The translations under genes were made by a program, and so were the position numbers. Under the pieces are notes generated by a model, which saw only the letters and a program-made list of their open reading frames with translations, was not told the origin of the DNA and searched no databases. A stretch of DNA of 57,130 nucleotides from a virus (Duplodnaviria; Caudoviricetes), in the IMG/VR virus record IMGVR_UViG_3300021961_000119, positions 1-57,130 of that record; one strand, 5' to 3'. Positions 3,092 to 56,439 of this stretch are shown piece by piece; position 1 is the first letter of the stretch, and each line of letters opens with the position of its first letter.

Positions 3092-3121
3092 ATTATAACA
3101 CAGGTGGGGTAGCCTTGTCAA
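3092..3121 (-). promoter_or_regulatory. sigma70-type promoter
   Basis: TTGACA-N18-TATAAT; overlaps the stop of the upstream gene. Confidence 0.85.
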
Positions 3122-3398
3122 TACCCCCCTTTGGTATTCGTGTTGCCACGATGGTCGCGTACCCCGCTATGTCCACCCACGAGTCGAGGTGGTTGGGGTC
3201 GCCGTTCAAAATGCGGGAGGCCTTGCACGCGATCATGTCGAGCGATTCGCGCTGGTGGTACTCCAGCCGCTCCCAGCCCGGGCACTCGCGAAAGAGGTCC
3301 TTCAGCGTCTGTGCGATCTCGGCTTGGATGGTGTAGTCGCCGTACGACTGCCCGCGCTCCGCAACCACCTCGTCTATATCAAGCGATGACTGCGGCAT
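3093..3398 (-). CDS. DUF6378-like phage protein (101 aa)
   Basis: ERGxxYG ... KASRILNGDPNHLDSWVDIAGYA signature. Confidence 0.75.
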   Translation of the reverse strand: MPQSSLDIDEVVAERGQSYGDYTIQAEIAQTLKDLFRECPGWERLEYHQRESLDMIACKASRILNGDPNHLDSWVDIAGYATIVATRIPKGGIDKATPPVL

Positions 3399-4626
3399 GT
3401 GCGAGTCCTCCTTTTTTATACCGGTTCTTGTACCCGCCGGGTGGTGCGTCCTGCAGTAAACGCTCGACGATCTCGTCGGGATCGTACCCTTTCAGCATTC
3501 CACGGATCAGAGCCTCAGTTGTGGCCTGTCGTCCGAGCGTCGCCGGACCCATTGCCCCCTCTATACGTCCGGGATTCGCTACCACTTGTGGCTCAGCAAG
3601 ATTCTTAAGCAAAGCGGTCTCGTGCGGGCGTACTTGGCTGAATCGCAGTGGGGACGCCGTACCCGTACCGGGGCCGTAGGCACCAGCCAGTTGCGCTTCG
3701 CGTGTGAGGAGTGTTCCGATCGTCTGCTCGGGTGTCATCGACAGAAAGTCCGGTGTACGCAAATCCGCCGCCGCATCCATGTATTCGTCAGTCTTGCGAT
3801 TCGCGACCATGCCCGGACCACCCAATAGCTTCTTCAGGTAGTAATCCTCGGCGTGAGCGGCCTGAATGGGCGCGGCAAAAAGCTGACCCGACATCCCGGG
3901 CATATGGCCCATCTCCTCTACCGGAGAAATGAACCCAAGGTCGCCGTGTCCGAGCGAATGCGACGCCACATTGCCGAGTCGCCGTGCTTGATTTACGTCG
4001 GTCAGGTGCGACGCCACGTTGCCATGGCCTTGTGCTCGCATCATGTCGTACGCCAGCGCGTACATCTCTTTACCTTTCGCGGGCAGACTCTTCCACCATG
4101 CGGCACTGGGGTCCCGAAGTCCGTACCCGTCGGGCTTGACGTCCATCGCATAAAGTTCAGTCATCACCGGATCGGGCGTTAGCGAAGTCCGACGCGGGTC
4201 GCGCATCGCGGCTTGTTCCATGAACTTTTGTAGGCCATATCCTAGGTCCTCTTTGCCGGGCCGTGCGCGGCCGTAATTCCAAGTGATGTTAGGATATGCA
4301 CCCATCGCGTGCGCTTGGTCTATGTCTTTCGGAGCCTTGCTCTCGGGGTCTAGCCGGAGCTTGCCAGTTCTAGGCATGAAACCCCGCTTCACCGCATCTT
4401 CATCTGTGCTCGATATCGTCGCACGGATCGGTTCGCCGGTAGCGGTCTTGCCGAAAATCCCAGCCTTGTTATACTGCTCCACGATTTCTGCCGGGAGCAT
4501 ACCCTTTTGCGCTTGACGCATCCCAAGCGGAATGCGCTGGGCGTCCGGGGTGGCGGCAATGGCGCGATGGCCCCTGCCTACCCCTTGCATTAGGTCAGCG
4601 AACGACAGATTCTTCACTGGTGGCAT
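3379..4626 (-). CDS. Hypothetical protein (415 aa), possible GNAT-like core, C-terminal YKKGG motif
   Basis: Long ORF overlapping both neighbours; function is inference only. Confidence 0.75.
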   Translation of the reverse strand: MPPVKNLSFADLMQGVGRGHRAIAATPDAQRIPLGMRQAQKGMLPAEIVEQYNKAGIFGKTATGEPIRATISSTDEDAVKRGFMPRTGKLRLDPESKAPKDIDQAHAMGAYPNITWNYGRARPGKEDLGYGLQKFMEQAAMRDPRRTSLTPDPVMTELYAMDVKPDGYGLRDPSAAWWKSLPAKGKEMYALAYDMMRAQGHGNVASHLTDVNQARRLGNVASHSLGHGDLGFISPVEEMGHMPGMSGQLFAAPIQAAHAEDYYLKKLLGGPGMVANRKTDEYMDAAADLRTPDFLSMTPEQTIGTLLTREAQLAGAYGPGTGTASPLRFSQVRPHETALLKNLAEPQVVANPGRIEGAMGPATLGRQATTEALIRGMLKGYDPDEIVERLLQDAPPGGYKNRYKKGGLAHAAVIA

Positions 4627-5449
4627 AGTATACCTCGTTGCTGATCTTCAGCGTTTGCAGGTGGATGTCGATCGTGTCTTGCATCGGCTTCGCGTATCCC
4701 CCTGCTAGATTCCACACCAATGGGACCCGGGCCTCGCGTGCGGCGGTGAAGATGCCACGATCGCGGGCCGCAAGACCCTCCTTGGACAGGTATCCGACGC
4801 CGTAGGGGTCTTGGTCCCAAGCGTCAGCACCGGCCTGATACAGTATTATACCAGCCTTCGAGTGTCGAATCAATCCCTTGGCGAACGAATTCCACATGGC
4901 GGCGTTCCAGTCGGACTGGATCGGGCGTCCAATGTCCGGGCGAGTGACGTGCGTCACGCGGCCCCGGATCATCAGGTGGTCCAGCACGTCCTCGGTCCCG
5001 TCGCCGTGGTGCCCATCCCCGTCAATGATCAGCACATTCGTCGCGCCGTTCCGGAGTGCCTTCATCGCGGTGATCATCAGCCCGTTGAACGTGCAGAATC
5101 CGTACCCGTCCTCGAAGTGGGCGTGGTGGAAGCCCTGCGTAGCGGAGCACGCAACCCCGCCGTTCTCCAGCACGTGCTTGGCCGCCGCCCAGTGACCAGC
5201 GTTCGAGTAGAGGAGCGAGTTGGTAAGCTCCGGATCGATCGTGCCGAATCCGTTGGGGGTGACATTCTTCAGGACGCCACGGACGTATTCGCGGTGGTGG
5301 GCCTCTTCGAAGTCGATCGCTGTGTACGGCTCGAAGTTCGAGCGCACGTCACCCTCCAACTGGTGGATGAACTCGGGGATCTTCGCTACCGAGATGAAGT
5401 CGTAGGAGATCTCTTGGGCCGGGTGGTAGAATACGGGGGTGCTAGTCAT
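4595..5449 (-). CDS. Zn-dependent histone-deacetylase-family (HDAC/AcuC/APAH) amidohydrolase
   Basis: GFHHA catalytic His pair, GFC, DGDGHHGDGT metal motif, QAGAD, GGY catalytic Tyr. Confidence 0.93.
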   Translation of the reverse strand: MTSTPVFYHPAQEISYDFISVAKIPEFIHQLEGDVRSNFEPYTAIDFEEAHHREYVRGVLKNVTPNGFGTIDPELTNSLLYSNAGHWAAAKHVLENGGVACSATQGFHHAHFEDGYGFCTFNGLMITAMKALRNGATNVLIIDGDGHHGDGTEDVLDHLMIRGRVTHVTRPDIGRPIQSDWNAAMWNSFAKGLIRHSKAGIILYQAGADAWDQDPYGVGYLSKEGLAARDRGIFTAAREARVPLVWNLAGGYAKPMQDTIDIHLQTLKISNEVYYATSEESVVR

Positions 5450-5460
5450 GTGTATGTCCT

Positions 5461-5676
5461 CTATGGTTTATTGGTGGGGGACGAATTATACCACACGTGG
5501 GACAGGTTGTCAAGTCCATTCTTCCCATCCTCGGGTGACTCGGGCATCTCGGGTCTTTCGCGAGTCGTGAAGCGAAATTCGCAATGGTTGCAAGTTCGGC
5601 GACGGCGAGTGATGCCGTTCGCGTTTTGGTACGTGGTAGTGACTCGGGTGTCCTCGCCGCATTTGATACAATTCAT
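5461..5676 (-). CDS. Stand-alone NrdR-type zinc-ribbon protein (no ATP-cone)
   Basis: CIKC...TRV...RRRRTCNHCEFRFTTRE matches the NrdR N-terminal pattern; ATGA overlap with datZ. Confidence 0.8.
   Translation of the reverse strand: MNCIKCGEDTRVTTTYQNANGITRRRRTCNHCEFRFTTRERPEMPESPEDGKNGLDNLSHVWYNSSPTNKP
5485..5513 (-). promoter_or_regulatory. sigma70-type promoter for the deacetylase unit
   Basis: TTGACA-N17-TATAAT with TG extension, then ATAGAGGACA RBS. Confidence 0.85.
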
Positions 5677-6236
5677 AACCAACCCCCTGTAATTCCTATA
5701 TCGTTGCAAACGCGGCGAACCGACTCGCGCACGTTCAATGTCGGATGCAAACGCTCGGTCTCGTTCACCATGTCCGACAGGATCGCACGAAGGCCATCGA
5801 GCACTTGCTTGGCGTGTGCCCCCACCCCGTTGTCCTGCAGAAAAAAGATCGCCTCGATCTGGTCCGCGAGCTTGACTATGGCTTCTACATCGGAGCCTTT
5901 TACCTGCCGGTACGCCGCCATGGTGTCTATATCTACGCGGTCCTCAGCCTTCTCCACGATCCCTACACCCCCTACCGCTTCTAGGTCTCGCTTGAACGGC
6001 GTCGGCATGTCGCCCGTGCGCACCTCGATGATGTCATGCGCGAGTGCCCACTGCAAGAGCTTCAATTTGCCCGAGTCCTGCAAGAGTCCGTTCCAGCGCA
6101 TTGCGGCCGCGAGGGATCCCGCGATCACCGCTACTGCGAAAGAGTGCTCGGCCAACGTCTGCTCCCGCGACGTCTGCACAATGTGCCACCGCTTGACGTG
6201 GCAAGCGCGAAGTTGTTCGTATACTGTTAAGCTCAT
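5673..6236 (-). CDS. datZ: HD-domain dATP triphosphohydrolase
   Basis: LRACHVKRWHIVQT, AEH, ALAHDIIEVRTGDMPTP, KLADQIEA, NGVGAHA closely follow cyanophage S-2L DatZ as I recall it; in the purZ operon. Confidence 0.9.
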   Translation of the reverse strand: MSLTVYEQLRACHVKRWHIVQTSREQTLAEHSFAVAVIAGSLAAAMRWNGLLQDSGKLKLLQWALAHDIIEVRTGDMPTPFKRDLEAVGGVGIVEKAEDRVDIDTMAAYRQVKGSDVEAIVKLADQIEAIFFLQDNGVGAHAKQVLDGLRAILSDMVNETERLHPTLNVRESVRRVCNDIGITGGWL

Positions 6237-6448
6237 GATTTTACTGCCTGTAAACGTCTAATCTGGTCCGCGATCTGATCGCCGGACAATTCGTCGAAAA
6301 GCTGAAATTCGTACTTGCGAGCGATGTGCTCCAGTGCTCCGTTCCAGATTTTTTTCACCGCTTCGCGGTTCTCGTCGTCCTCAGACCCCAGCACATGGCC
6401 GAAGGTCTCGTTGTACCAAAGGTCAAAGGTCTCATTTCGTTTCGACAT
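6233..6448 (-). CDS. Hypothetical protein (71 aa) inside the Z operon
   Basis: Overlaps both mazZ and datZ. Confidence 0.7.
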   Translation of the reverse strand: MSKRNETFDLWYNETFGHVLGSEDDENREAVKKIWNGALEHIARKYEFQLFDELSGDQIADQIRRLQAVKS

Positions 6449-6935
6449 GGCGCATGATCCTCGTGTTGACGTCGACTTCCCATTCGCGTCCCTCGTTGAT
6501 ATCCATCTTGTCCTCTACCGCCTTATGTACGTCTATACCGTTTTTGTGCGCGACGTCGAGCAAGAGAATCATGATGTCACCCATTTCGAGAGCGGCTTTT
6601 GGGTTACGAGCGTACTCGCCCACCTCCTCGTAGAGCTTGAGGAGGATGTCCGCAGTGGTACGCGCCGGAAAACGCGAGTCTGCCCACTTGGTAATTCTAT
6701 CCTGAAGTTGTCGCATATCAGCCCCACCACGCTTCTTATACGCGTTGACGGCGCGGACCGCAAGGTCGGCATTCTTATCGCAGTTGGCCATAACGCCACG
6801 CAAGTGATGACGGACTTCGAAAGACGCGACGGTTGCGCCGTGCGCATCGACAACTTCTGCCGCCCGTTCAGGGTGAATCGCCCATGGGGTGTCATTGAGT
6901 TCATCCGTGTGTACTGTTGATTCTACCTGTAGCAT
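6432..6935 (-). CDS. mazZ: MazG-like (MazZ/DUF550-type) dNTP pyrophosphohydrolase with extra N-terminal domain
   Basis: C-half WADSRFP..LKLYEEVGE..EMGDI..KMDIN.R.W is an all-alpha NTP-PPase motif; adjacent to purZ. Confidence 0.8.
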   Translation of the reverse strand: MLQVESTVHTDELNDTPWAIHPERAAEVVDAHGATVASFEVRHHLRGVMANCDKNADLAVRAVNAYKKRGGADMRQLQDRITKWADSRFPARTTADILLKLYEEVGEYARNPKAALEMGDIMILLLDVAHKNGIDVHKAVEDKMDINEGREWEVDVNTRIMRHVETK

Positions 6936-8028
6936 AAGCCCTCCAAAGTTCTAGAATTCGTCCCATTCGTGCCTCTTGCCCATACTGGGGCATGGAGTAC
7001 ACGTCTTTATATTCCGGTCCGAGACCGATCCAACGCACGAACGTGTTCGGCGTGCGCTCGATCGATTCGACGATGTCCTGCACCTCTTCCTCCGTCTTGC
7101 AGTAATTAACGAAGTTCAGGAAGATCTCCCGGGCACCATTATACTCTATCGCTTCCCCGATCTGCTTGCGACTGAATGTGAAAATGCGGCGCGGTAGCTT
7201 GGTGACGGTGGTAAGCTCCGTCTTTTGTCCGATCTCTTCAAACGTGATCTCCAACTGGTCGTCGTAGCACGGGCCGGAGTACCCGACTTGCGTGCCGTGT
7301 GTGTCGAATCGATTGGCCACCCGGATAGGGTAAGTGCGGCAAGTGCCGACGACTGTGATATCGGGCAAGTCCATCACTGTAGGCAACAGGTCGTGCGGAA
7401 TGCCGCAATCGGCAAGGATTTGCCACAGACTCACATCACGCGAAGTGGTGTAGGGGTAGAAGCCGTGGTACATCGAGAGTCCGTACCCTTGTGCACCCTC
7501 CACCAGCACGTGCTCGGCTTCGCGCAAGCACTGGCGGTACTTGGACACTGTGACCACGTACTTCGATAGCCCCTCACAATTCGCGGCTATGTTCATGTCG
7601 TCCGGGTCGCGCCGGATGCGCTGAATCATCGCGGCACCCACGCCTTTTTTGGTCGAACCGATCTTGGTCATCGGCCCGGCTTCTTCTTCGATGTGACGAT
7701 CCGTCACTACGGCGGCGTGCGGGTGAATCACGATGCGAACGCTCTTGAGCAAGTCCGCGCACGCGGCGATCTCTTCCAGCAATTGCACCGGGTTGATAAG
7801 TGAGCCGGGGCCGAGTAGCACCTGCTTGAGCATGGGCGACACGATGCTATTTGCAAGGTGCGTGTGAATGAACTTGCGTCCAGTCTTGCTGATGTACGTG
7901 TGCCCCGCATTGGGTGCCCACGCGGTGATCACCGTATCCGGTGCTTCGTCCTCCGCGATCTTGCCCACGATAAGCCCCTTACCGGTGCTCCCGTATTGCA
8001 AATCGACTACAACCTTAATCTTGTCCAT
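6901..8028 (-). CDS. purZ: N6-succino-2-amino-2'-deoxyadenylate synthase
   Basis: Adenylosuccinate-synthetase fold with DLQYGSTGKG (Ser for the PurA catalytic Asp), PNAGHT, EGAQG, YPYTTSR, TTVTKLPRR, NFVNY; start MDKIK behind TAGAGG. Confidence 0.95.
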   Translation of the reverse strand: MDKIKVVVDLQYGSTGKGLIVGKIAEDEAPDTVITAWAPNAGHTYISKTGRKFIHTHLANSIVSPMLKQVLLGPGSLINPVQLLEEIAACADLLKSVRIVIHPHAAVVTDRHIEEEAGPMTKIGSTKKGVGAAMIQRIRRDPDDMNIAANCEGLSKYVVTVSKYRQCLREAEHVLVEGAQGYGLSMYHGFYPYTTSRDVSLWQILADCGIPHDLLPTVMDLPDITVVGTCRTYPIRVANRFDTHGTQVGYSGPCYDDQLEITFEEIGQKTELTTVTKLPRRIFTFSRKQIGEAIEYNGAREIFLNFVNYCKTEEEVQDIVESIERTPNTFVRWIGLGPEYKDVYSMPQYGQEARMGRILELWRAYATGRINSTHG

Positions 8029-8033
8029 TACCT

Positions 8034-9869
8034 CTATCCTTTCGCTTCGTACCAGTCCTCGCCTATACCCCAGTCGCACGTGATCGGAACACGTAGATGA
8101 ATGGGGCACTCTACACCATCAAAGGTCGTGTAGATTCGTGCCACCTCTTGCGCTTTGTCGAGTGAGTCATTATCGAGCGATACGCCCACTTCGTCGTGTA
8201 CCGTCAGCAGTAGTCGCCCACAGCCTTCGGCGGTTAAATACTTGTGCAGTTCGATGAGCTTCTGCTTCATGCAGTCCGCGCTGGTGGCTTGGTAGATCAG
8301 CCCCGACGCCTTGTGCACGAATTGCCCGCCCGGAAAGCGAAGCCTCCGGCCCATCACTGAATGCACCGAACCACGTTCCTTGGCGATGTTACTCGCCTTC
8401 TGTGCGGTGTTGCGCATCCCGGGGTTCGCGGTGTGGTACTTGTCGAACAGTGCCATCGCCTCGGGTCCTGCCTTCAAGAACACATTGCCACTGGGTCCCA
8501 CTTCTTCGGTGTAGGGCAGTCCACACTCCTGCGCTAGCCGCCCGGACCCCATATTGAACGCCAGCCCGAGGTTAATCGCTTTCGAAGACGGGCCACCTGC
8601 GTACTGAGCGTTCCGGGGTATGCCGGTGAGATCAGACACCAACTGGTGAAAGTCCAGATCGGGGTTTGCACGATAGGCCTCAAGAATCGCGGGAACTTGA
8701 CCGTAATGGTTAGCCACTCGGAATTCAAATTGTGACCAATCCAGCCCCATCCATTTAGCACCCACATCAGCCTTGAAAATCGGCCGGATAAGCGATTTGA
8801 TGGCAACGTCTCGCGATGGTATCTGCTGGAGAGCGGGATTGGTAACTGATAGACGTCCAGTGCCAGTTCCCGCCTCAGCGTCGTTTTTAGTCTGGTTATA
8901 ATTGCAGTGAATGATGCCATCGTGTTCGTGCCCCAAGATGTGACCCGACAGGAAAGTGTCCCGGGTCTTGAGCATTTTGCGCAAGTCGAGAATCATCTTC
9001 GCGGCGGGGTGCTTCATGCGTCGCAAGCAGTCGGCGTTGATCGAGGCCTTACCGCCGTCGGTCTTGTCCGCCTTCGTGCCGTCGATCAGGTACCACTCGT
9101 TATCGTCCGCGAGTGTCGGCTTGAACAGATCCGCGATCGATCCGGAGGGGTTCGGGTTGACCTCAAAACCGGCCAAGCTATTCAGATCCCTCTGCATATT
9201 GTCAACGCGCACGGTGAGGTCACGGACGGCCTTCTCAGCCAGCCCCACGTCCACCCGCACACCCTGCTCTTCCATATCCATGATCACGGGCATCAAATCG
9301 CGCTCGAGCCGGTGGACTTGGGCGAGATTCTGCGTCCGCATCTGCTCCTCTTGCCAGTCGTACAGTGCTAGCGTGACCACGGCGTCCTGAATAGCATATT
9401 TCGACACCATGCTGATCGGGGCACGCGAAATGTTCGGCATCTGCGCATTCCGAGTCGAACGGCCACCGAAGAGTCGCGCCATCTCCTCGTAGATCTCGTC
9501 GTCCTTTTTCATGCCGCAGTATTTGCGGGCGAGGAAGTCGAGGGCGTAGGTGGGTTCGTGTTCCGAGATCAGTGCGGCACGGGTCATCGTGCAGTCGATT
9601 CGGTCAAGGGGGATCGCTACACCAGCTTCCCGGAGAAAGTGGAGATCGAATTTGAGATTGTGACCGACCCACAGATCGACACGTTTCTCGTCGATGAGGT
9701 CGTTGAGCCACTTGATAACATGAGGGTCGGACCGTACATCCCAGTACCCCGAGAACCCGGGGAGCGCGATGGAGATGCCGAACAGCTTGTCGGCCCACCA
9801 TTTCAGCCCCGTGGTCTCGGTGTCTATGACCACCACCGGAGCGTGGTCAATGCGTGGGAATTCGGTCAT
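8034..9869 (-). CDS. dpoZ: Family A DNA polymerase with 3'-5' exonuclease, DpoZ-like
   Basis: Exo motifs DTETTG, HNLKFD, YAIQD; Pol motifs DWSQFEFR, KAINLGLAF, TVHDE; directly upstream of purZ. Confidence 0.88.
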   Translation of the reverse strand: MTEFPRIDHAPVVVIDTETTGLKWWADKLFGISIALPGFSGYWDVRSDPHVIKWLNDLIDEKRVDLWVGHNLKFDLHFLREAGVAIPLDRIDCTMTRAALISEHEPTYALDFLARKYCGMKKDDEIYEEMARLFGGRSTRNAQMPNISRAPISMVSKYAIQDAVVTLALYDWQEEQMRTQNLAQVHRLERDLMPVIMDMEEQGVRVDVGLAEKAVRDLTVRVDNMQRDLNSLAGFEVNPNPSGSIADLFKPTLADDNEWYLIDGTKADKTDGGKASINADCLRRMKHPAAKMILDLRKMLKTRDTFLSGHILGHEHDGIIHCNYNQTKNDAEAGTGTGRLSVTNPALQQIPSRDVAIKSLIRPIFKADVGAKWMGLDWSQFEFRVANHYGQVPAILEAYRANPDLDFHQLVSDLTGIPRNAQYAGGPSSKAINLGLAFNMGSGRLAQECGLPYTEEVGPSGNVFLKAGPEAMALFDKYHTANPGMRNTAQKASNIAKERGSVHSVMGRRLRFPGGQFVHKASGLIYQATSADCMKQKLIELHKYLTAEGCGRLLLTVHDEVGVSLDNDSLDKAQEVARIYTTFDGVECPIHLRVPITCDWGIGEDWYEAKG

Positions 9870-10126
9870 CAGAACGGAATGTCGTCAGACACGAAGTTCG
9901 AATCGCTGGCTGGTCGGCCAGTAGAACCGCCTTCTTTGCGGGTAAGCTTAATGGAGAAGTACTTTTTGCCCTCTAGCTTGCCGCCGGGCTTGCCCTCGTT
10001 AACCCACGCGGAGAGCCAAAAATCCGTGCCCTCAACGTTGATCGAACCGGTGAATTCCGGGTGCTTGTCGGTGTCGCGACGCTCGTTACGAGCCATCATA
10101 CCGGAGTTAGTATTGTCGTATGCCAT
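9869..10126 (-). CDS. Small SSB-like protein (85 aa)
   Basis: beta-rich core with SSB-type acidic DDIPF tail; TGATG coupling to the polymerase. Confidence 0.7.
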   Translation of the reverse strand: MAYDNTNSGMMARNERRDTDKHPEFTGSINVEGTDFWLSAWVNEGKPGGKLEGKKYFSIKLTRKEGGSTGRPASDSNFVSDDIPF

Positions 10127-10162
10127 CTGAATGTCCTCTATCTGTTGGTTAATGAAGTGATT

Positions 10163-10191
10163 ATTATACCACCCGCGCTACTGTCTGTCAA
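10163..10191 (-). promoter_or_regulatory. sigma70-type promoter of the Z operon
   Basis: TTGACA-N17-TATAAT with TG extension, then ATAGAGGACA RBS. Confidence 0.85.
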
Positions 10192-10194
10192 CTG

Positions 10195-11610
10195 TCACAG
10201 TTTGTAGCCATTGTGTCCCTCTACTATATCTAGCACTCGCTTGGAGCGGGTCATCCCGACGTAGAACACTCGGACCTCGTCGTCCGGTGATTTCTCGGCA
10301 GTCTGCTGTACTCGCGTGGTCATGTCGGTGAGAAGAATGACTCGATCCGCCTCATGACCCTTTGCCGCATGGATCGTAGAGAGTCGAATAGTAGGCTCAG
10401 TATCGAGATCGGCGTCGGTGTAGAAATCCACGACTCGGCCGGGGATTTGGAGAGCGACGTAGAACGGGGTGCGACCAAGAGTGGCGAGGTCGCCCGCTTC
10501 AAGAAGCCTGCGAGTCTCAGCGCTGGAAATGGTGAATATTGCATTTCGCTCCCCCTCCGTGACTCGCTCGCCTCGGCCAAGCTTGCGGAACGCCCGGATA
10601 CCGGAGGCATAACGATTTTGATAAAGCCCGGGGCGACCCGACTCTCTAGTGTATGGGATGCGCTGTTCGATAAGTGATTGTTCAACTTCGCGGAGGACTG
10701 AATGTGTCCGTCCCAATAATAGTATATCTTCCCCGTGGGTGATTTCCACCGAGTTGATCGATCCGTGTACTCGGACCAGTCCCACATCTGCTTTGGGACT
10801 AAACTCCTTATCCACGCGGAGTGCGACTCGACGGATGAGGTCTTGAGATCGTGCGTGGACTGAAGCAGGAAGTCGATGCGAGTGCGAGAGCACACGGCTA
10901 TCACCCTTATGCTTTTGTGTAAATCTTGCCATACCGTGTACATCCGCACCGGCCCATGTATAAATCGCCTGATCGTCGTCCCCAGCGATATGCACTTCGT
11001 GAGAACGTCTGACGAGCTTCTCGATGACAGCCCACTGAAGAGGTGATAGGTCTTGAGCTTCGTCGACAAATACAACCTCTGCGTCTGCTCGCACTGCGCC
11101 CCGGGCGGCACGTTCAAGCATATCGGTGAAGTCGTAATAGCCGTACGTAGATTTCCAATCAGCGTATGCCCGAACGAACGCATTGAACTCGGCCCGAGTA
11201 CCCGGCCGGTCCGAGATGTCGTAAACTTCTGCCGGATTGGAAAAGGTGTTCCGGGCATAATTGAGTAGGTCAAGGTAGAAGTCTCCATCAGCACGCTCCT
11301 CATCATCTTCCGGGGATTTGCCAATAATCGGTATCCCCATAACTGTTGAAAATTCGCGAAGCTTCATCGCGTCCACGACTTGCGTCTGCCGCAAGCCCAT
11401 GTGACGGAAGGCCATCGCGTGAATGGTGGACACATTGTCCGAACGCTTGAGGCCCAGCCGGGAGAGTGCCTCGGAAGCCGCCGCACGGGTAAAAGAAACG
11501 AAAGCCACGCGTTCGGCTTGAACGCCCGAATCCCTAGTCTCTTTTACTCGCCGCAGTAGCTCCGTGGTCTTGCCAGTCCCGGGGGGTCCGTAGATGGCGT
11601 TAACTTGCAT
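10195..11610 (-). CDS. UvrD/Rep-like SF1 helicase
   Basis: GPPGTGKT, SFTRAA, VDEAQD, GDDDQAIY, STIHAAKGHE, FYVGMTR; start MQVNAIY with TAATG overlap. Confidence 0.92.
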   Translation of the reverse strand: MQVNAIYGPPGTGKTTELLRRVKETRDSGVQAERVAFVSFTRAAASEALSRLGLKRSDNVSTIHAMAFRHMGLRQTQVVDAMKLREFSTVMGIPIIGKSPEDDEERADGDFYLDLLNYARNTFSNPAEVYDISDRPGTRAEFNAFVRAYADWKSTYGYYDFTDMLERAARGAVRADAEVVFVDEAQDLSPLQWAVIEKLVRRSHEVHIAGDDDQAIYTWAGADVHGMARFTQKHKGDSRVLSHSHRLPASVHARSQDLIRRVALRVDKEFSPKADVGLVRVHGSINSVEITHGEDILLLGRTHSVLREVEQSLIEQRIPYTRESGRPGLYQNRYASGIRAFRKLGRGERVTEGERNAIFTISSAETRRLLEAGDLATLGRTPFYVALQIPGRVVDFYTDADLDTEPTIRLSTIHAAKGHEADRVILLTDMTTRVQQTAEKSPDDEVRVFYVGMTRSKRVLDIVEGHNGYKL

Positions 11611-11882
11611 TAGCCGCGATGCTTCACTGCACGCACCGCCCACATCTGAGCTGTGACCGTGTGAGCGATCGCTGTGGTGAACATCTCTTGCACTTCACCG
11701 TCGTGGTAGACGTCGCGCAGTGTACGCAGATAGGTGACAGTCGTGTCGAAGGATTGATTTATCGAGCGAATTCGACGCTCTTCGTCATTCTCGTCCTGCG
11801 GGATGGGCATCGTAGACACAACCTCTTTAAATTCCGCGAGAACGTCTTCGGCTGGCGTCTCGACTTGCTTCTTGGTAGCCAT
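11610..11882 (-). CDS. Helical-hairpin protein, possible Acb2/Tad1-like nucleotide-signal sponge
   Basis: Two long helices ending TTAIAHTVTAQMWAVRAV. Confidence 0.5.
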   Translation of the reverse strand: MATKKQVETPAEDVLAEFKEVVSTMPIPQDENDEERRIRSINQSFDTTVTYLRTLRDVYHDGEVQEMFTTAIAHTVTAQMWAVRAVKHRG

Positions 11883-11920: not shown

Positions 11921-12664
11921 TCAATACTCGGATTCTGCGACTTCAGTCACTTCACCGTCGTAGTCGTTCGAGACCTTAACGCCACCGGAACGGATCGTTT
12001 CGTACAGCTTCTCGGCACGCTCGTACAGCTCCTTGTTCACGAACCCGAGGGCCGCAACGTTGAAGTTAAAGTAGCTCTCGTTCCGTGCATTGGTCTCGGT
12101 CGTGGCCGACAGCTTGTAGGCGCGGCTGAACGAGTCTGTGTTGGTCAGTCGCATCAACGAATTCCAACGCTTGGATACCTTGATCTTAGACTTGGCCATC
12201 GAGATCACCGCTTCTTGCCAGTCGTCGCCATTGCGCACCAACACGAAGTGTTGAGCCGTATCGGACACCTCCAACGCTTCTTCGGCTAAATCCGCGATAG
12301 CACGGTCAGCCAGTTCTTTAGTAGCGAACGCTCCACGGAAGCCGTTACTGCCACCACCACCCGCTTTGCGGTCTTTCCACACGAGGAACTGCTTCGTGTA
12401 GTACACCGGCACCACAGTGACTTCAGTGCCGTACAGCGTGCGAGTGACGTTATTGTACAGCATGCCCTCTTCTGCGCCGTCGATGTAGGCGGGGTCGCTT
12501 TTCTTGCGCACTGGGGACAATGCTTGGATCAGCTCAATGCGAGGAATGATCATGTCGTCAGTGCCGACATTCTCCGCGCCTCGGTTACCTTGCTTTAAGA
12601 AATCCGGAATCTCGTTAGTCACAAGTTCGAACTCTTCTTTTACTGCTACTTGATTTTTAGCCAT
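11921..12664 (-). CDS. Putative phage ssDNA-binding protein
   Basis: IPRIELIQALSP motif, beta-rich body, acidic aromatic-ended tail; replication context. Confidence 0.6.
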   Translation of the reverse strand: MAKNQVAVKEEFELVTNEIPDFLKQGNRGAENVGTDDMIIPRIELIQALSPVRKKSDPAYIDGAEEGMLYNNVTRTLYGTEVTVVPVYYTKQFLVWKDRKAGGGGSNGFRGAFATKELADRAIADLAEEALEVSDTAQHFVLVRNGDDWQEAVISMAKSKIKVSKRWNSLMRLTNTDSFSRAYKLSATTETNARNESYFNFNVAALGFVNKELYERAEKLYETIRSGGVKVSNDYDGEVTEVAESEY

Positions 12665-16835: not shown

Positions 16836-16864
16836 TTGACACCACCTCTGTGGGCTGGTATAAT
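16836..16864 (+). promoter_or_regulatory. Plus-strand consensus sigma70 promoter
   Basis: TTGACA-N17-TATAAT with TG extension, facing the repeat element. Confidence 0.7.
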
Positions 16865-16903: not shown

Positions 16904-17142
16904 GTTCCACCGTTCCATCAAGATGGAACACATGATGGAACACCCTCTCCCATTCGACAGACAGGCCTCCTGTTCCACCGTTCCATGCGCACGCGGGGGG
17001 ATTGCTCTGTCAACGGCGTGGTTCGATACGGGGGGTATATGATGGAACGGGGGATACAACGGAACACGACACACTCAAGCCCCGAAGGACGCGGGCTTCG
17101 AGACACCGGGGCGTTCCAGACGCCGTACCATCTTAATGGAAC
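16904..17142 (+). repeat. Iteron/hairpin element copy 1 (inverted relative to 52702-52937)
   Basis: Non-coding; many GTTCCA/TGGAAC units; palindrome GTTCCATC-AA-GATGGAAC at 16912-16929. Confidence 0.88.
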
Positions 17143-40848: not shown

Positions 40849-41265
40849 TTACCACCCCGGGCAATTCCAACGTTTAAGCGATGCGGCTTTCCGGGTCGGA
40901 CGCCCTTGATCGTCCTTCAGTGGCCCCGGATTGCCCTCCATCCTAGCGCAAAATGAATCTCGACGGGGTCCCCCTTGGGGTTGTGGAGCTTTCAAGTTAC
41001 TACCAGTTTCCCGATTATACTTTGCCCGACCCCTCTTTGTCAATCCTGCGCCTTTTTCGACCGGAAGCTTTTCACCCCGGCCAATAGAGAGTGCCACGCC
41101 GCCTTCAGCTTTTCGAGTAGGGAGTTTAGCATAGGATTTACCTTTTACGTTACTGGAAGTGTACTCAGCCGCTTGAGACTGAGACATTCCGATTTTCTTG
41201 GCAAGTCCCGGATTGTGCTCGATCGCTTTCATCAAGCGAAATTGGGCTTTGGACTTGGCGGGCAT
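40849..41265 (-). CDS. Basic protein, DUF6321-like
   Basis: MPAKSKAQFRLM; GLTKRGRAKYNRETGSNLKAP...SFCARM. Confidence 0.7.
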   Translation of the reverse strand: MPAKSKAQFRLMKAIEHNPGLAKKIGMSQSQAAEYTSSNVKGKSYAKLPTRKAEGGVALSIGRGEKLPVEKGAGLTKRGRAKYNRETGSNLKAPQPQGGPRRDSFCARMEGNPGPLKDDQGRPTRKAASLKRWNCPGW

Positions 41266-44938: not shown

Positions 44939-45934
44939 TTAACCCCTATTTGTGTTCATGCGGTCATATTCCGCGTATTTACGAATCATCTTGTTACGCT
45001 CGGTGATGTTATCCCATCTACCGGCTTCCTTGATGGCGCGGACTCGCTCGGGTGACAACCGAAACTCGTTTCCACGAGATGTCGATTGTGATTCACGTCC
45101 TGAGCTTGTTACCACGGTACGGGGTCTCCGATTTGACGACTGATTGTCGTTGCCGCTATTATAACGGTGCGGCAGGTATTTTGTCAATCTATTATCTAGC
45201 TCTTCCCAGTATTCGGCAGTCTTCGGGTCCCATCCGTCGGCCACAAGAGCCTCATCCACCTTGGTGGCGACTTGGGAGTCCATGTCCTTGCCGTTCGGGT
45301 CGTACCAATCGTTCCGAGCCATCCAGTCCGAGGCGTGACGCTTCAGGAGCGGGTCCGGAGCTTGGGGAACAGAATTGCGATTGGGTTCCGAGGCCACAGC
45401 CTTTTTCTTGAGCGATTCGAGAGCCTCCACTTGGCGGCGGGCTTCATACCACGCCTCCTGCGCTTCTACGACGGAAGCGCCATCAGCCATCTCAGTGGCC
45501 TCTTTCACCTTCATCTTCGCGTATTGGAGCCTCAAATTACCATCTTCGATCGCCTTGTCCAGTCGAGCAAGGTCCGAACCGGCCGTCCGCTTTTCGAGGA
45601 CCGCTAGACGCTCGGCCATATGGTCATTCTGGCGTTTCAGCGAGGTGATCAGGTGGTTCGACTCACTCGCCTTGGCCTTCTGAAGCTTCTTCTTGAGCTG
45701 TCGCTCCTCACGACGGGCCAGTCGAATTGCTTCGCGCTCAGGATCGGCGTGGGGTATATTGTCGGCGGGATTATCATCATCGTCGCCATCATCCGAATCT
45801 ACTCGGCCACCGGTCCGGAGACCATCGCCGCTATTTTCGGGGGTATTCGGTGCCTCGCCATCGGGCAGAGACACCACTGCGGACCCATCGGGTTCTTCCG
45901 CGAGTTGCAAATCGAGTTTATCGTTGGAGGTCAT
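44939..45934 (-). CDS. Putative capsid scaffolding protein
   Basis: Acidic N-terminus, long coiled coil, W..RN.WY segment, C-terminal helix. Confidence 0.7.
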   Translation of the reverse strand: MTSNDKLDLQLAEEPDGSAVVSLPDGEAPNTPENSGDGLRTGGRVDSDDGDDDDNPADNIPHADPEREAIRLARREERQLKKKLQKAKASESNHLITSLKRQNDHMAERLAVLEKRTAGSDLARLDKAIEDGNLRLQYAKMKVKEATEMADGASVVEAQEAWYEARRQVEALESLKKKAVASEPNRNSVPQAPDPLLKRHASDWMARNDWYDPNGKDMDSQVATKVDEALVADGWDPKTAEYWEELDNRLTKYLPHRYNSGNDNQSSNRRPRTVVTSSGRESQSTSRGNEFRLSPERVRAIKEAGRWDNITERNKMIRKYAEYDRMNTNRG

Positions 45935-52701: not shown

Positions 52702-52937
52702 TGTTCCATAATGATGGAACGGTGATGGAACGCACCACAGTCTCACAAGCCCCGTCCGACGCGGTTTTCGAGACACACAGCCCGTGTACCATTGTTCCAT
52801 CATATACCCATATATATTAAACCATGCCGTTGACAGGGCAGTACCCCCGCGTGCGCATGTAACAATGGAACACCGGGTCTTTTTTCGAATGGGGAGAGCG
52901 TTCCATCATGTGTTCCATCTTGATGGAACGGTGGAAC
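52702..52937 (-). repeat. Iteron/hairpin element copy 2 (inverted relative to 16904-17142)
   Basis: Reverse complement begins GTTCCACCGTTCCATCAAGATGGAACACATGATGGAAC, identical to 16904-16941. Confidence 0.88.
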
Positions 52938-54616: not shown

Positions 54617-54646
54617 ATTATAACACGGGTGCGGTACCTTTGTCAA
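54617..54646 (-). promoter_or_regulatory. sigma70-type promoter
   Basis: TTGACA-N18-TATAAT with extended -10. Confidence 0.85.
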
Positions 54647-55546: not shown

Positions 55547-55576
55547 ATTATAACACGGGAGCAATAGGTTTGTCAA
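55547..55576 (-). promoter_or_regulatory. sigma70-type promoter
   Basis: TTGACA-N18-TATAAT with extended -10. Confidence 0.85.
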
Positions 55577-56409: not shown

Positions 56410-56439
56410 ATTATAACACAGGTGCTACAATCTTGTCAA
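56410..56439 (-). promoter_or_regulatory. sigma70-type promoter
   Basis: TTGACA-N18-TATAAT; counterpart of 400-429. Confidence 0.85.

Follow-up and report, generated by a model that had tools for sequence, protein, structure and literature searches.

A predicted 2-aminoadenine (Z) operon in an uncultured lineage of ~57 kb phages

Phages that carry 2-aminoadenine (Z) for adenine have been sorted into seven groups (PMC12884076), and the cultured members nearest to the locus described here are Acinetobacter phage SH-Ab 15497 and Pseudomonas phage PSA28, in which a helicase, dpoZ, an ssb-like gene (SSB, single-stranded DNA-binding protein), purZ, a DUF5664-DUF550 fusion and an HD/datZ gene form one module. 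Here, we compare with these and other systems a region of the virus record IMGVR_UViG_3300021961_000119 (Caudoviricetes), a complete record of 57,130 bases (CheckV estimate 100%), which was analysed at full length and is referred to as the window. A sequence-only reading had proposed a complete operon dpoZ-purZ-mazZ-datZ at positions 5673-10191, and the pathway that it stated, in which PurZ with host PurB and kinases makes dZTP from dGMP, MazZ supplies dGMP, DatZ removes dATP and DpoZ favours dZTP, agrees with the literature (PMC8342488, PMC8065100 and PMC8599892). We find that the region is very probably an early or middle unit that would enable the phage to make DNA with Z for adenine, and that what is new is an uncultured lineage of ~57 kb, not the gene combination.

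The window resembles the SH-Ab 15497/PSA28 module in having the same functions in nearly the same order on one strand. These two phages have the nearest cultured PurZ (47-50% identity) and DpoZ (45-49%), and they share with the window a DUF550 enzyme with an aromatic residue at the position of S-2L MazZ N20 and an SSB-like protein with a DD(I/L)PF tail. Unlike in them, the SSB-like gene of the window precedes dpoZ, the pyrophosphohydrolase lacks DUF5664, a 71-residue open reading frame (orf71) and an NrdR-type zinc ribbon gene are added, the genome is of ~57 kb rather than 43-48 kb, and the structural module resembles that of the non-Z phage MW202545.1. The podovirus Vibrio phage phiVC8 has a DpoZ of the same sub-family, a PurZ that is 45% identical and the W20 of DatZ; however, its order (dpoZ, primase, purZ, MazZ-2, datZ) places a primase between dpoZ and purZ, its MazZ-2 is missed by tblastn with the window MazZ, and it has a Leu at DatZ position 22 and a Ser at DpoZ position 583. 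Cyanophage S-2L shares the order purZ-mazZ-datZ, the MazZ-1/DUF550 fold family and both W20 and I22 of DatZ, and provides the best PurZ match in the PDB; it has no DpoZ and relies on DatZ and a non-selective PrimPol (PMC8065100), and its MazZ, with N20, is (d)GTP-specific (PMC8342488). The PurZ0 systems of actinobacteriophages Wayne, Goodman, Frizzle and Galactica (DutZ/DmtZ) likewise have Ser for Asp in the P-loop and encode a family A polymerase close by, but PurZ0 forms a clade of its own, with GSEAKG instead of GSTGKG and no NFxN pocket, and unlike the PurZ0 systems with DutZ/DmtZ the window has no dUTPase or NDT (nucleoside deoxyribosyltransferase) domain. A Z cluster is defined in PMC8342488 by mazZ lying between purZ and datZ, and the window has the order purZ-mazZ-orf71-datZ.

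Nearly all genes of the window lie on the minus strand, and the open reading frame list places dpoZ, purZ, mazZ and datZ there within 5673-10191. The features of the operon and its upstream neighbour are as follows:

11643..10195, minus strand, gene for a UvrD/PcrA-type helicase, directly upstream of the operon promoter, stop at 10195
10191..10163, minus strand, sigma-70-type promoter-like site (TTGACA-17-TATAAT with a TG extension, 12 of 12 consensus positions matched)
10126..9869, minus strand, SSB-like gene, 85 residues, first gene after the promoter
9869..8034, minus strand, dpoZ, 611 residues
8028..6901, minus strand, purZ, 375 residues from an ATG with an AAGGA ribosome site
6935..6432, minus strand, mazZ, 167 residues
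6448..6233, minus strand, orf71, 71 residues, between mazZ and datZ
6236..5673, minus strand, datZ, 187 residues
5676..5461, minus strand, NrdR-type zinc ribbon gene, 71 residues, ATG overlapping the datZ stop (ATGA)

From the SSB-like gene through the zinc ribbon gene, the junctions measure -1, +5, -35, -17, -4 and -4 bases, in that order: the stop of the SSB-like gene overlaps the ATG of dpoZ (TGATG), orf71 shares 17 bases with mazZ and 4 with datZ, and a GGAG-like ribosome site precedes most gene starts. A longer purZ frame starting with GTG at 8109 would overlap dpoZ. As judged by the ATGA overlap, the zinc ribbon gene is predicted to be translationally coupled to datZ, and therefore the unit would reach ~210 bases past the left edge set by the sequence-only reading. 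Thus, the four genes of that reading are all present and tightly packed, but they belong to a run of seven that also includes the SSB-like gene, orf71 and the zinc ribbon gene.

The presence of all four parts together had been singled out as unusual, which is not so, since the four functions adjoin in the compared Z phages, both cultured and metagenomic. By tblastn, all four Z genes were found in three of seven cultured loci and in 11 of 14 distant metagenomic loci. In SH-Ab 15497, PSA28 and BUCT555, dpoZ, purZ, a DUF550 gene and an HD gene adjoin one another, and phiVC8, ZP6 and vB_OspP_OH have the same set with another MazZ variant, which is annotated or published in these three and lies beyond the reach of tblastn; S-2L, with its PrimPol, is the only one without DpoZ. 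Thus, the four genes together are normal for DpoZ-bearing Z phages.

The assignment of purZ as the gene of a 2-aminoadenylosuccinate (dSMP) synthetase is supported by family, structure and residue comparisons. The protein belongs to phrog_1211, the PurZ family (5e-86), and its best PDB matches are the PurZ of S-2L (PDB identifier 7odx, 1.7e-79) and of phiVC8 (PDB identifier 6fm1, about 1.6e-75), as against 1.8e-24 for Pyrococcus PurA, 2.2e-20 for a 'PurA-like' phage enzyme and 4e-11 for E. coli PurA. An alignment of the window PurZ with those of S-2L, phiVC8, SH-Ab 15497 and two metagenomic relatives, one PurZ0 and one bacterial PurA confirms the three motifs quoted by the sequence-only reading, viz., GSTGKG for the GDEGKG of PurA, TTVTKLPRR for the G..GR.RR loop and NFVNY for TKLD. 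Among 33 sites checked against S-2L PurZ, 29 are identical in the window and three are substituted as in the PurZ of phiVC8 or SH-Ab 15497; C204 is a Thr in the window and in its two metagenomic relatives. With the roles assigned in PMC8342488 to the dGMP pocket, the aspartate loop and the adenine-nucleotide pocket, the residues of the S-2L dGMP pocket (Y21-S23, N49, A50, T132, Q190, R240 and V241) are all identical, V237 is present, the strictly conserved T273-T276 loop is TTVT, and the adenine-nucleotide pocket consists of N305, F306, N308, G337 and P338, where PurA has T, K, D, D and Q. S14 (in YGSTGKG) replaces the catalytic Asp13 of PurA, the bacterial PurA control having D14, and Ser at this place has been reported in 100% of 147 phage PurZ/PurZ0 sequences (PMC12884076).

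The phylogeny, a quick IQ-TREE run (LG+G4, with SH-aLRT support only), comprised 75 rows: the window, 61 from IMG/VR, seven cultured PurZ, four PurZ0 and two PurA or PurA-like sequences, with rows shorter than 300 residues and two duplicate window loci left out. The window PurZ falls within the PurZ clade (SH-aLRT 98), apart from PurZ0 (98) and PurA (100), in a sub-clade of 48-55 metagenomic rows that includes none of the seven cultured sequences; low support at many of the deeper forks, together with several long branches, limits how precisely the sister of this sub-clade can be placed. A family search and phylogeny had been proposed as a check on the sequence-only reading, and in both the protein groups with PurZ and not with canonical PurA. 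The same results bear on an alternative in which the PurA paralogue is an auxiliary adenylosuccinate enzyme of purine salvage, the HD and MazG-type proteins serve as nucleotide-pool housekeepers, and the DNA is canonical. Such a reading could draw on Pfam, which taken by itself names the protein only as 'Adenylosuccinate synthetase' (105.6 bits), and on the occurrence of true PurA genes in large phage records, but with Ser for the catalytic Asp13, NFVN for the GTP-specifying TKLD, the placement in the tree and the wide gap between the PurZ and E. coli PurA matches, we consider it hardly credible, and the dSMP synthetase assignment is kept in what follows.

The product of dpoZ is supported as a family A polymerase, as the sequence-only reading had it, and more narrowly as one of the phiVC8-like DpoZ type (DpoZ-2). 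It combines PF00476 (7.1e-47) with the 3'-5' exonuclease domain PF01612 (7.1e-15) and matches phiVC8 DpoZ (PDB identifier 7pbk) with 2e-135 versus 7.6e-41 for Klenow. The three insertions of phiVC8-type DpoZ, in the palm, at helix O and at the finger tip, are present, the third being ~4 residues shorter, and R440, L455, F459 and G548 are kept; the insertions, L455, F459 and G548 are features of the phiVC8-like clade according to PMC8599892. All 25 phage matches listed for this protein are polymerases with 41-49% identity, and 24 of these 25 records are also among the PurZ matches. The gene in front of dpoZ encodes a protein matching phrog_7364, 'single strand DNA binding protein' (8.5e-14), which ends in SDDIPF; the homologues beside dpoZ have the endings DDDLPF (SH-Ab 15497) and DDDIPF (PSA28). 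Such a tail is similar to the partner-binding C-terminal tip of bacterial SSB. Further upstream, the UvrD/PcrA-type helicase (PF00580, 2.7e-28; phrog_1967, 6.9e-78) is likely the replication partner of DpoZ and the SSB-like protein, and a helicase-dpoZ-ssb-purZ neighbourhood is found in SH-Ab 15497 and PSA28 as well. The PMBT28 helicase together with SSB has been described in a preprint as raising dZ incorporation in E. coli.

The mazZ gene had been called MazG-type, which holds as regards its identity as a pyrophosphohydrolase, its sole PDB match being S-2L MazZ (PDB identifier 7ody, 3.4e-11), but its kind is DUF550 (PF04447; 33.4 bits, cut-off 23). The protein has an N-terminal extension of ~70 residues with no assigned domain and no DUF5664 domain, and K31, E35, D53, D60, K76, N80, W85, R94 and H95 of S-2L MazZ are kept, D60 being the contact to the 2-amino group of guanine. 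The datZ product is supported as an HD-domain dATP triphosphohydrolase by its matches to phrog_7076, 'dATP triphosphohydrolase' (1.4e-31), and PF12917 (57.7 bits), and its earlier likening to S-2L DatZ is borne out by the PDB, where the S-2L enzyme is the best match (PDB identifier 6zpa, 7.1e-19, versus 8.1e-08 for YfbR). All residues compared (R19, W20, I22, Q29, A32, H34, H66, D67, G74, P79, K81, K116 and D119 in S-2L numbering) are conserved, among them the metal ligands H34, H66, D67 and D119 and the phosphate contacts R19, K81 and K116. W20, which excludes the ribose 2'-OH, and I22, which excludes the purine 2-amino group (PMC8065100), correspond to W17 and I19 in the KRWHIVQT stretch of the window protein.

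Among cultured phages the lineage has no close relative. A megablast search with positions 5400-10200 found no match in 50,697 phage records; the 205 records with a PurZ match are all below 60% identity, the best (49-50%) being Acinetobacter phages, and PurZ identity to cultured phages nowhere exceeds 50%. IMG/VR holds 65 loci with a relative, and at least 51 of these, at 55-99% PurZ identity, have a common gene order: primase, SNF2 helicase, Pam3-gp34-like protein, UvrD helicase, ssb-like gene, dpoZ, purZ, mazZ, orf71, datZ, zinc ribbon, HDAC-like gene and a gene for a 415-residue protein. All four Z genes are present in 44 of the 51 related loci, the remaining seven being cut by contig ends, and 14 of the 51 lie on contigs of 53-59 kb. 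A PurZ scan of genome_contigs gave 69 pattern matches of which none was confirmed, and hence no clue to a host or prophage. The Z genes are conserved at 45-99% identity across the 51 loci and all frames are open in the window; the residues known from publications to serve catalysis or specificity are kept nearly throughout, with two exceptions at the positions of S-2L MazZ N20 and phiVC8 DpoZ S583. In view of this, and with no observation in its favour, an inactive module persisting as a passenger of the replication genes is exceedingly improbable. One junction within the module varies: the orf71/datZ junction, a 4-base overlap in the window, is interrupted in many relatives by inserts of 0.25 to 1.9 kb (for example, L027 9775-11579, L055 9763-11676 and L034 9796-10822) and appears to be a hot spot at which the Z operon takes up further genes.

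The promoter-like site lies 37 bases upstream of the SSB-like gene. Perfect TTGACA-N16-18-TATAAT sites number 12 in the window and none in 100 shuffles; 11 of the 12 are on the minus strand, and several have a common spacer, ...CACCTGTGTTATAAT, with an extended -10 TG:

400-429, 1284-1311, 2303-2331, 3092-3121, 5485-5513, 10163-10191, 16836-16864, 41014-41043, 45158-45187, 54617-54646, 55547-55576 and 56410-56439, perfect promoter-like sites, minus strand except one

In an uncontrolled comparison, one to four such sites were counted in each of four other Z phages and none in the non-Z relative MW202545.1. A perfect promoter occurs at the same place upstream of the SSB-like gene in 22 of the 40 related loci that hold this region, including a sub-clade at ~61% PurZ identity. 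Within the gene block itself, a scan for perfect matches found none in any of the 51 related loci; weaker promoters may exist there. The terminator scan of the window was at chance level (10 sites versus 9.2 expected), and between the helicase stop (10195) and the -35 box there is no terminator and no room for one; therefore, read-through from upstream is possible. The proposal that the operon stands 'under one promoter' is thus sound as to the perfect promoter pattern but is a simplification, since transcripts may also enter from the helicase gene.

Based on these comparisons, we hypothesize the following course of events. Host RNA polymerase would start at 10191..10163 and transcribe the seven coupled genes. 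The DUF550-type MazZ would cut dGTP, and probably dATP too, to the monophosphate, PurZ would join dGMP and aspartate to dSMP using ATP or dATP, and host PurB and host kinases would convert dSMP to dZTP. DatZ would destroy dATP, and DpoZ, aided by the SSB-like protein and the upstream UvrD-type helicase, would copy the genome with dZTP, its exonuclease removing misincorporated A. We infer the enzyme activities, the promoter activity and the contribution of the host from sequence comparison. In six-frame searches, the record yielded no match for a dUTPase, an NDT, a PurB-type lyase or a guanylate kinase; of the 14 reference genomes used as controls, 11, 3, 14 and 10, respectively, gave a match. 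This result fits the published host-enzyme route from dSMP to dZTP (PMC8342488). Given the genes, it is a fair inference that the virion DNA would carry Z instead of A.

Several points weigh against this reading. The presence of Z is predicted here from the genes of a metagenome assembly, for which no relative was found in genome_contigs. Polymerases resembling DpoZ are also found in phages that have no Z cluster, such as phiJL001 (PMC8599892), and therefore a preference for Z here rests on kinship. S583 in motif C of phiVC8 DpoZ is a Glu in the window, as in SH-Ab 15497 and PSA28, though the account in PMC8599892 does not treat S583 as characteristic of the phiVC8-like DpoZ clade. The promoter at 10191..10163 is a pattern match only, and 18 of the 40 related loci have no perfect copy of it in front of the SSB-like gene. 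One sentence of PMC12884076 swaps the ATP and GTP preferences of PurZ0 and PurZ with respect to the structural paper, which we have followed. N20 of S-2L MazZ, the contact to guanine O6, is F89 here (SH-Ab 15497 and PSA28 have Tyr or Phe there in their DUF550 domains), and therefore the substrate range may differ from that of S-2L MazZ; PF04447/DUF550 enzymes have been reported to hydrolyse both dATP and dGTP (bioRxiv 10.1101/2025.10.22.683976), and by analogy the window MazZ is expected to hydrolyse dATP and dGTP rather than to be strictly dGTP-specific.

This departure from the dGTP-specific enzyme of S-2L also bears on whether the replacement would be partial or conditional, with working genes and a substantial share of A kept in the virion DNA, for example, through incomplete clearance of dATP by MazZ and DatZ or weak discrimination by the polymerase. 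Transplanted clusters reach only 14-44% dZ in E. coli (PMC12944874), and the selectivity of the polymerase has been ascribed to backtracking and not to direct reading of the 2-amino group (PMC8599892). However, the window encodes two dATP-removing functions (DatZ and the DUF550-type enzyme) and a proofreading DpoZ with all clade features, and complete substitution has been described in studied phages (PMC12884076, PMC8342488). We therefore regard partial replacement as unlikely and retain a Z-for-A genome as our working view.

Avoidance of palindromes was considered as a sign of Z and dropped, as the non-Z MW202545.1 shows similar depletion, which likewise counts against using it in support of Z. 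GC-only 6-mer palindromes number 49 versus 148 expected in the window and those containing A/T 630 versus 808; the corresponding observed and expected values in MW202545.1 are 27 and 107, and 384 and 604. The depleted palindromes include CCGCGG (1 versus 31), GCCGGC (0 versus 17), GGCGCC (0 versus 9), GGGCCC (0 versus 7) and GAGCTC (0 versus 16). GTCGAC (8 versus 25.9 expected) is also depleted, a single case that fits the cutting of dZ-DNA by SalI (PMC12944874).

The remainder of the genome points to other kin. The terminase is closest (48%) to that of MW202545.1, a metagenomic phage of 57 kb in which the structural genes follow a similar order and which has no PurZ, DpoZ, DatZ or MazZ in the 50 kb examined. 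The Z-plus-replication and structural modules therefore have different kin, which indicates a mosaic genome that joins a Z-plus-replication module to an unrelated structural module; differing kin of the two have also been described for other Z-phage groups (PMC12884076). The structural module (17234-52709) is highly divergent and most of its large proteins, including one of 1,559 residues, have no family: searches gave almost no Pfam family, a weak SU10-adaptor match that did not reach the cut-off, and neither a tape measure nor a sheath family. A Pam3-gp34-like protein (11921-12664; PF23977, 4.8e-67), encoded upstream of the helicase, is found in 12 of 14 distant metagenomic and six of seven cultured Z-phage loci. 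In the early region, positions 1285-2589 match TIGR03299, 'phage/plasmid-like protein' (1.4e-90). Scans of the window returned no tRNA and no Rfam match at the gathering threshold. The heptamer ATGGAAC occurs 23 times versus 7.3 expected, often as inverted pairs GTTCCAT-N4-ATGGAAC, and 14 of the copies lie in two clusters (16912-17142 and 52703-52929). One of them follows the primase gene, in a gap of 425 bases that also contains the sole plus-strand perfect promoter, and the second is just upstream of the small terminase gene, so that the late structural block lies between the two; both are candidate sites for a regulator or an origin.

The related loci also share genes that distant Z phages lack. 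No Pfam, PHROG or NCBIfam family was found for orf71. It was detected in 47 of the 51 related loci but in none of the 21 Z-phage loci that are more distant. The zinc ribbon, with the sequence CxxC...RRRRxCxxCxxRF, matches PF22811 (34.4 bits, cut-off 27.2) and accompanies datZ in every one of the 50 related loci that include this gene, but is absent from the 21 distant ones. Its match to TIGR00244 NrdR (24.6 bits) is below the cut-off of 124.65 and covers residues 1-43, and the 71-residue protein has no NrdR ATP-cone domain; by these measures it resembles the DNA-binding part of NrdR but is not an NrdR. A search for NrdR boxes with a consensus (at most 3 mismatches) was at chance level (1 match versus 1.28 expected). 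Our literature search found no paper joining PurZ with NrdR; for PurZ with deacetylase, the papers listed were unrelated, apparently matching through surnames. The words deacetylase, NrdR and acetyltransferase are absent from the main texts of PMC12884076 and of the 2025 preprint (bioRxiv 10.1101/2025.10.22.683976).

Beside the Z operon, a two-gene cassette (3379-5513) stands behind a perfect promoter-like site of its own:

5449..4595, minus strand, gene for a class IV HDAC-like deacylase, first cassette gene
4626..3379, minus strand, gene for a 415-residue protein, second cassette gene, overlapping the HDAC-like gene by 32 bases

The site, at 5513..5485, falls at the 3' end of the zinc ribbon gene and is predicted to serve these two genes; a perfect promoter upstream of the HDAC-like gene is found in 39 of 48 related loci. 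The closest solved relative of the HDAC-like protein is the class IV-like deacylase HdaH of Vibrio cholerae (1.2e-21; HdaH is named in PMC11532494), its catalytic motifs HH, D-x-D-x-H...GDGT, D and GGY do not vary among 49 sequences, and a homologue occurs in just six of the 50,697 phage records. The 415-residue protein has no PHROG, Pfam or NCBIfam family and no tblastn match in those records, and in Atlas it matches viral hypothetical clusters only. A confident AlphaFold model built from 20 sequences (pLDDT 88.8, pTM 0.90) gave no Foldseek match at E<=0.001, and VIA-align of residues 45-248 returned almost exclusively GNAT-fold structures, with a best Z-score of only 5.8-6.2 and a best match of 4.5-4.7 root mean square deviation over 125 residues; G185, Y189 and D194 are invariant within a G-x-G...Y...D stretch, and in GNAT enzymes a G-x-G loop binds acyl-CoA. 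Given these low scores and the lack of a significant Foldseek match, the model weakly suggests a GNAT resemblance, which is a lead and not a result. The cassette genes occur together in 48 of the 51 related loci and are absent together in two loci that keep the zinc ribbon; as both are lost in 2 of the 50 ribbon-holding loci, they form a dispensable unit that is not needed for Z itself. It is very doubtful, but conceivable, that the Z module of this clade has gained a second layer in these genes. The cassette could act on Z-DNA or its precursors, perhaps by reversible acylation of the extra 2-amino group, which, if true, would yield a hypermodified Z, and the zinc ribbon could re-tune the control of host ribonucleotide reductase during the destruction of dATP.

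As the pathway is already well described, the result bears out the present view and does not alter it. What it contributes is an uncultured lineage of ~57 kb, a further set of phages in whose genomes Z is expected in place of A. The A's of these records in databases probably stand for Z in the particle, with effects on restriction, cloning, melting and nanopore signal, and sigma-70 acting on these phages would face a -10 box made of Z and T. The enzymes are new, divergent variants for the laboratory production of Z-DNA, and the zinc ribbon, orf71 and the deacylase cassette are candidates for accessory functions of the Z phages of this clade.

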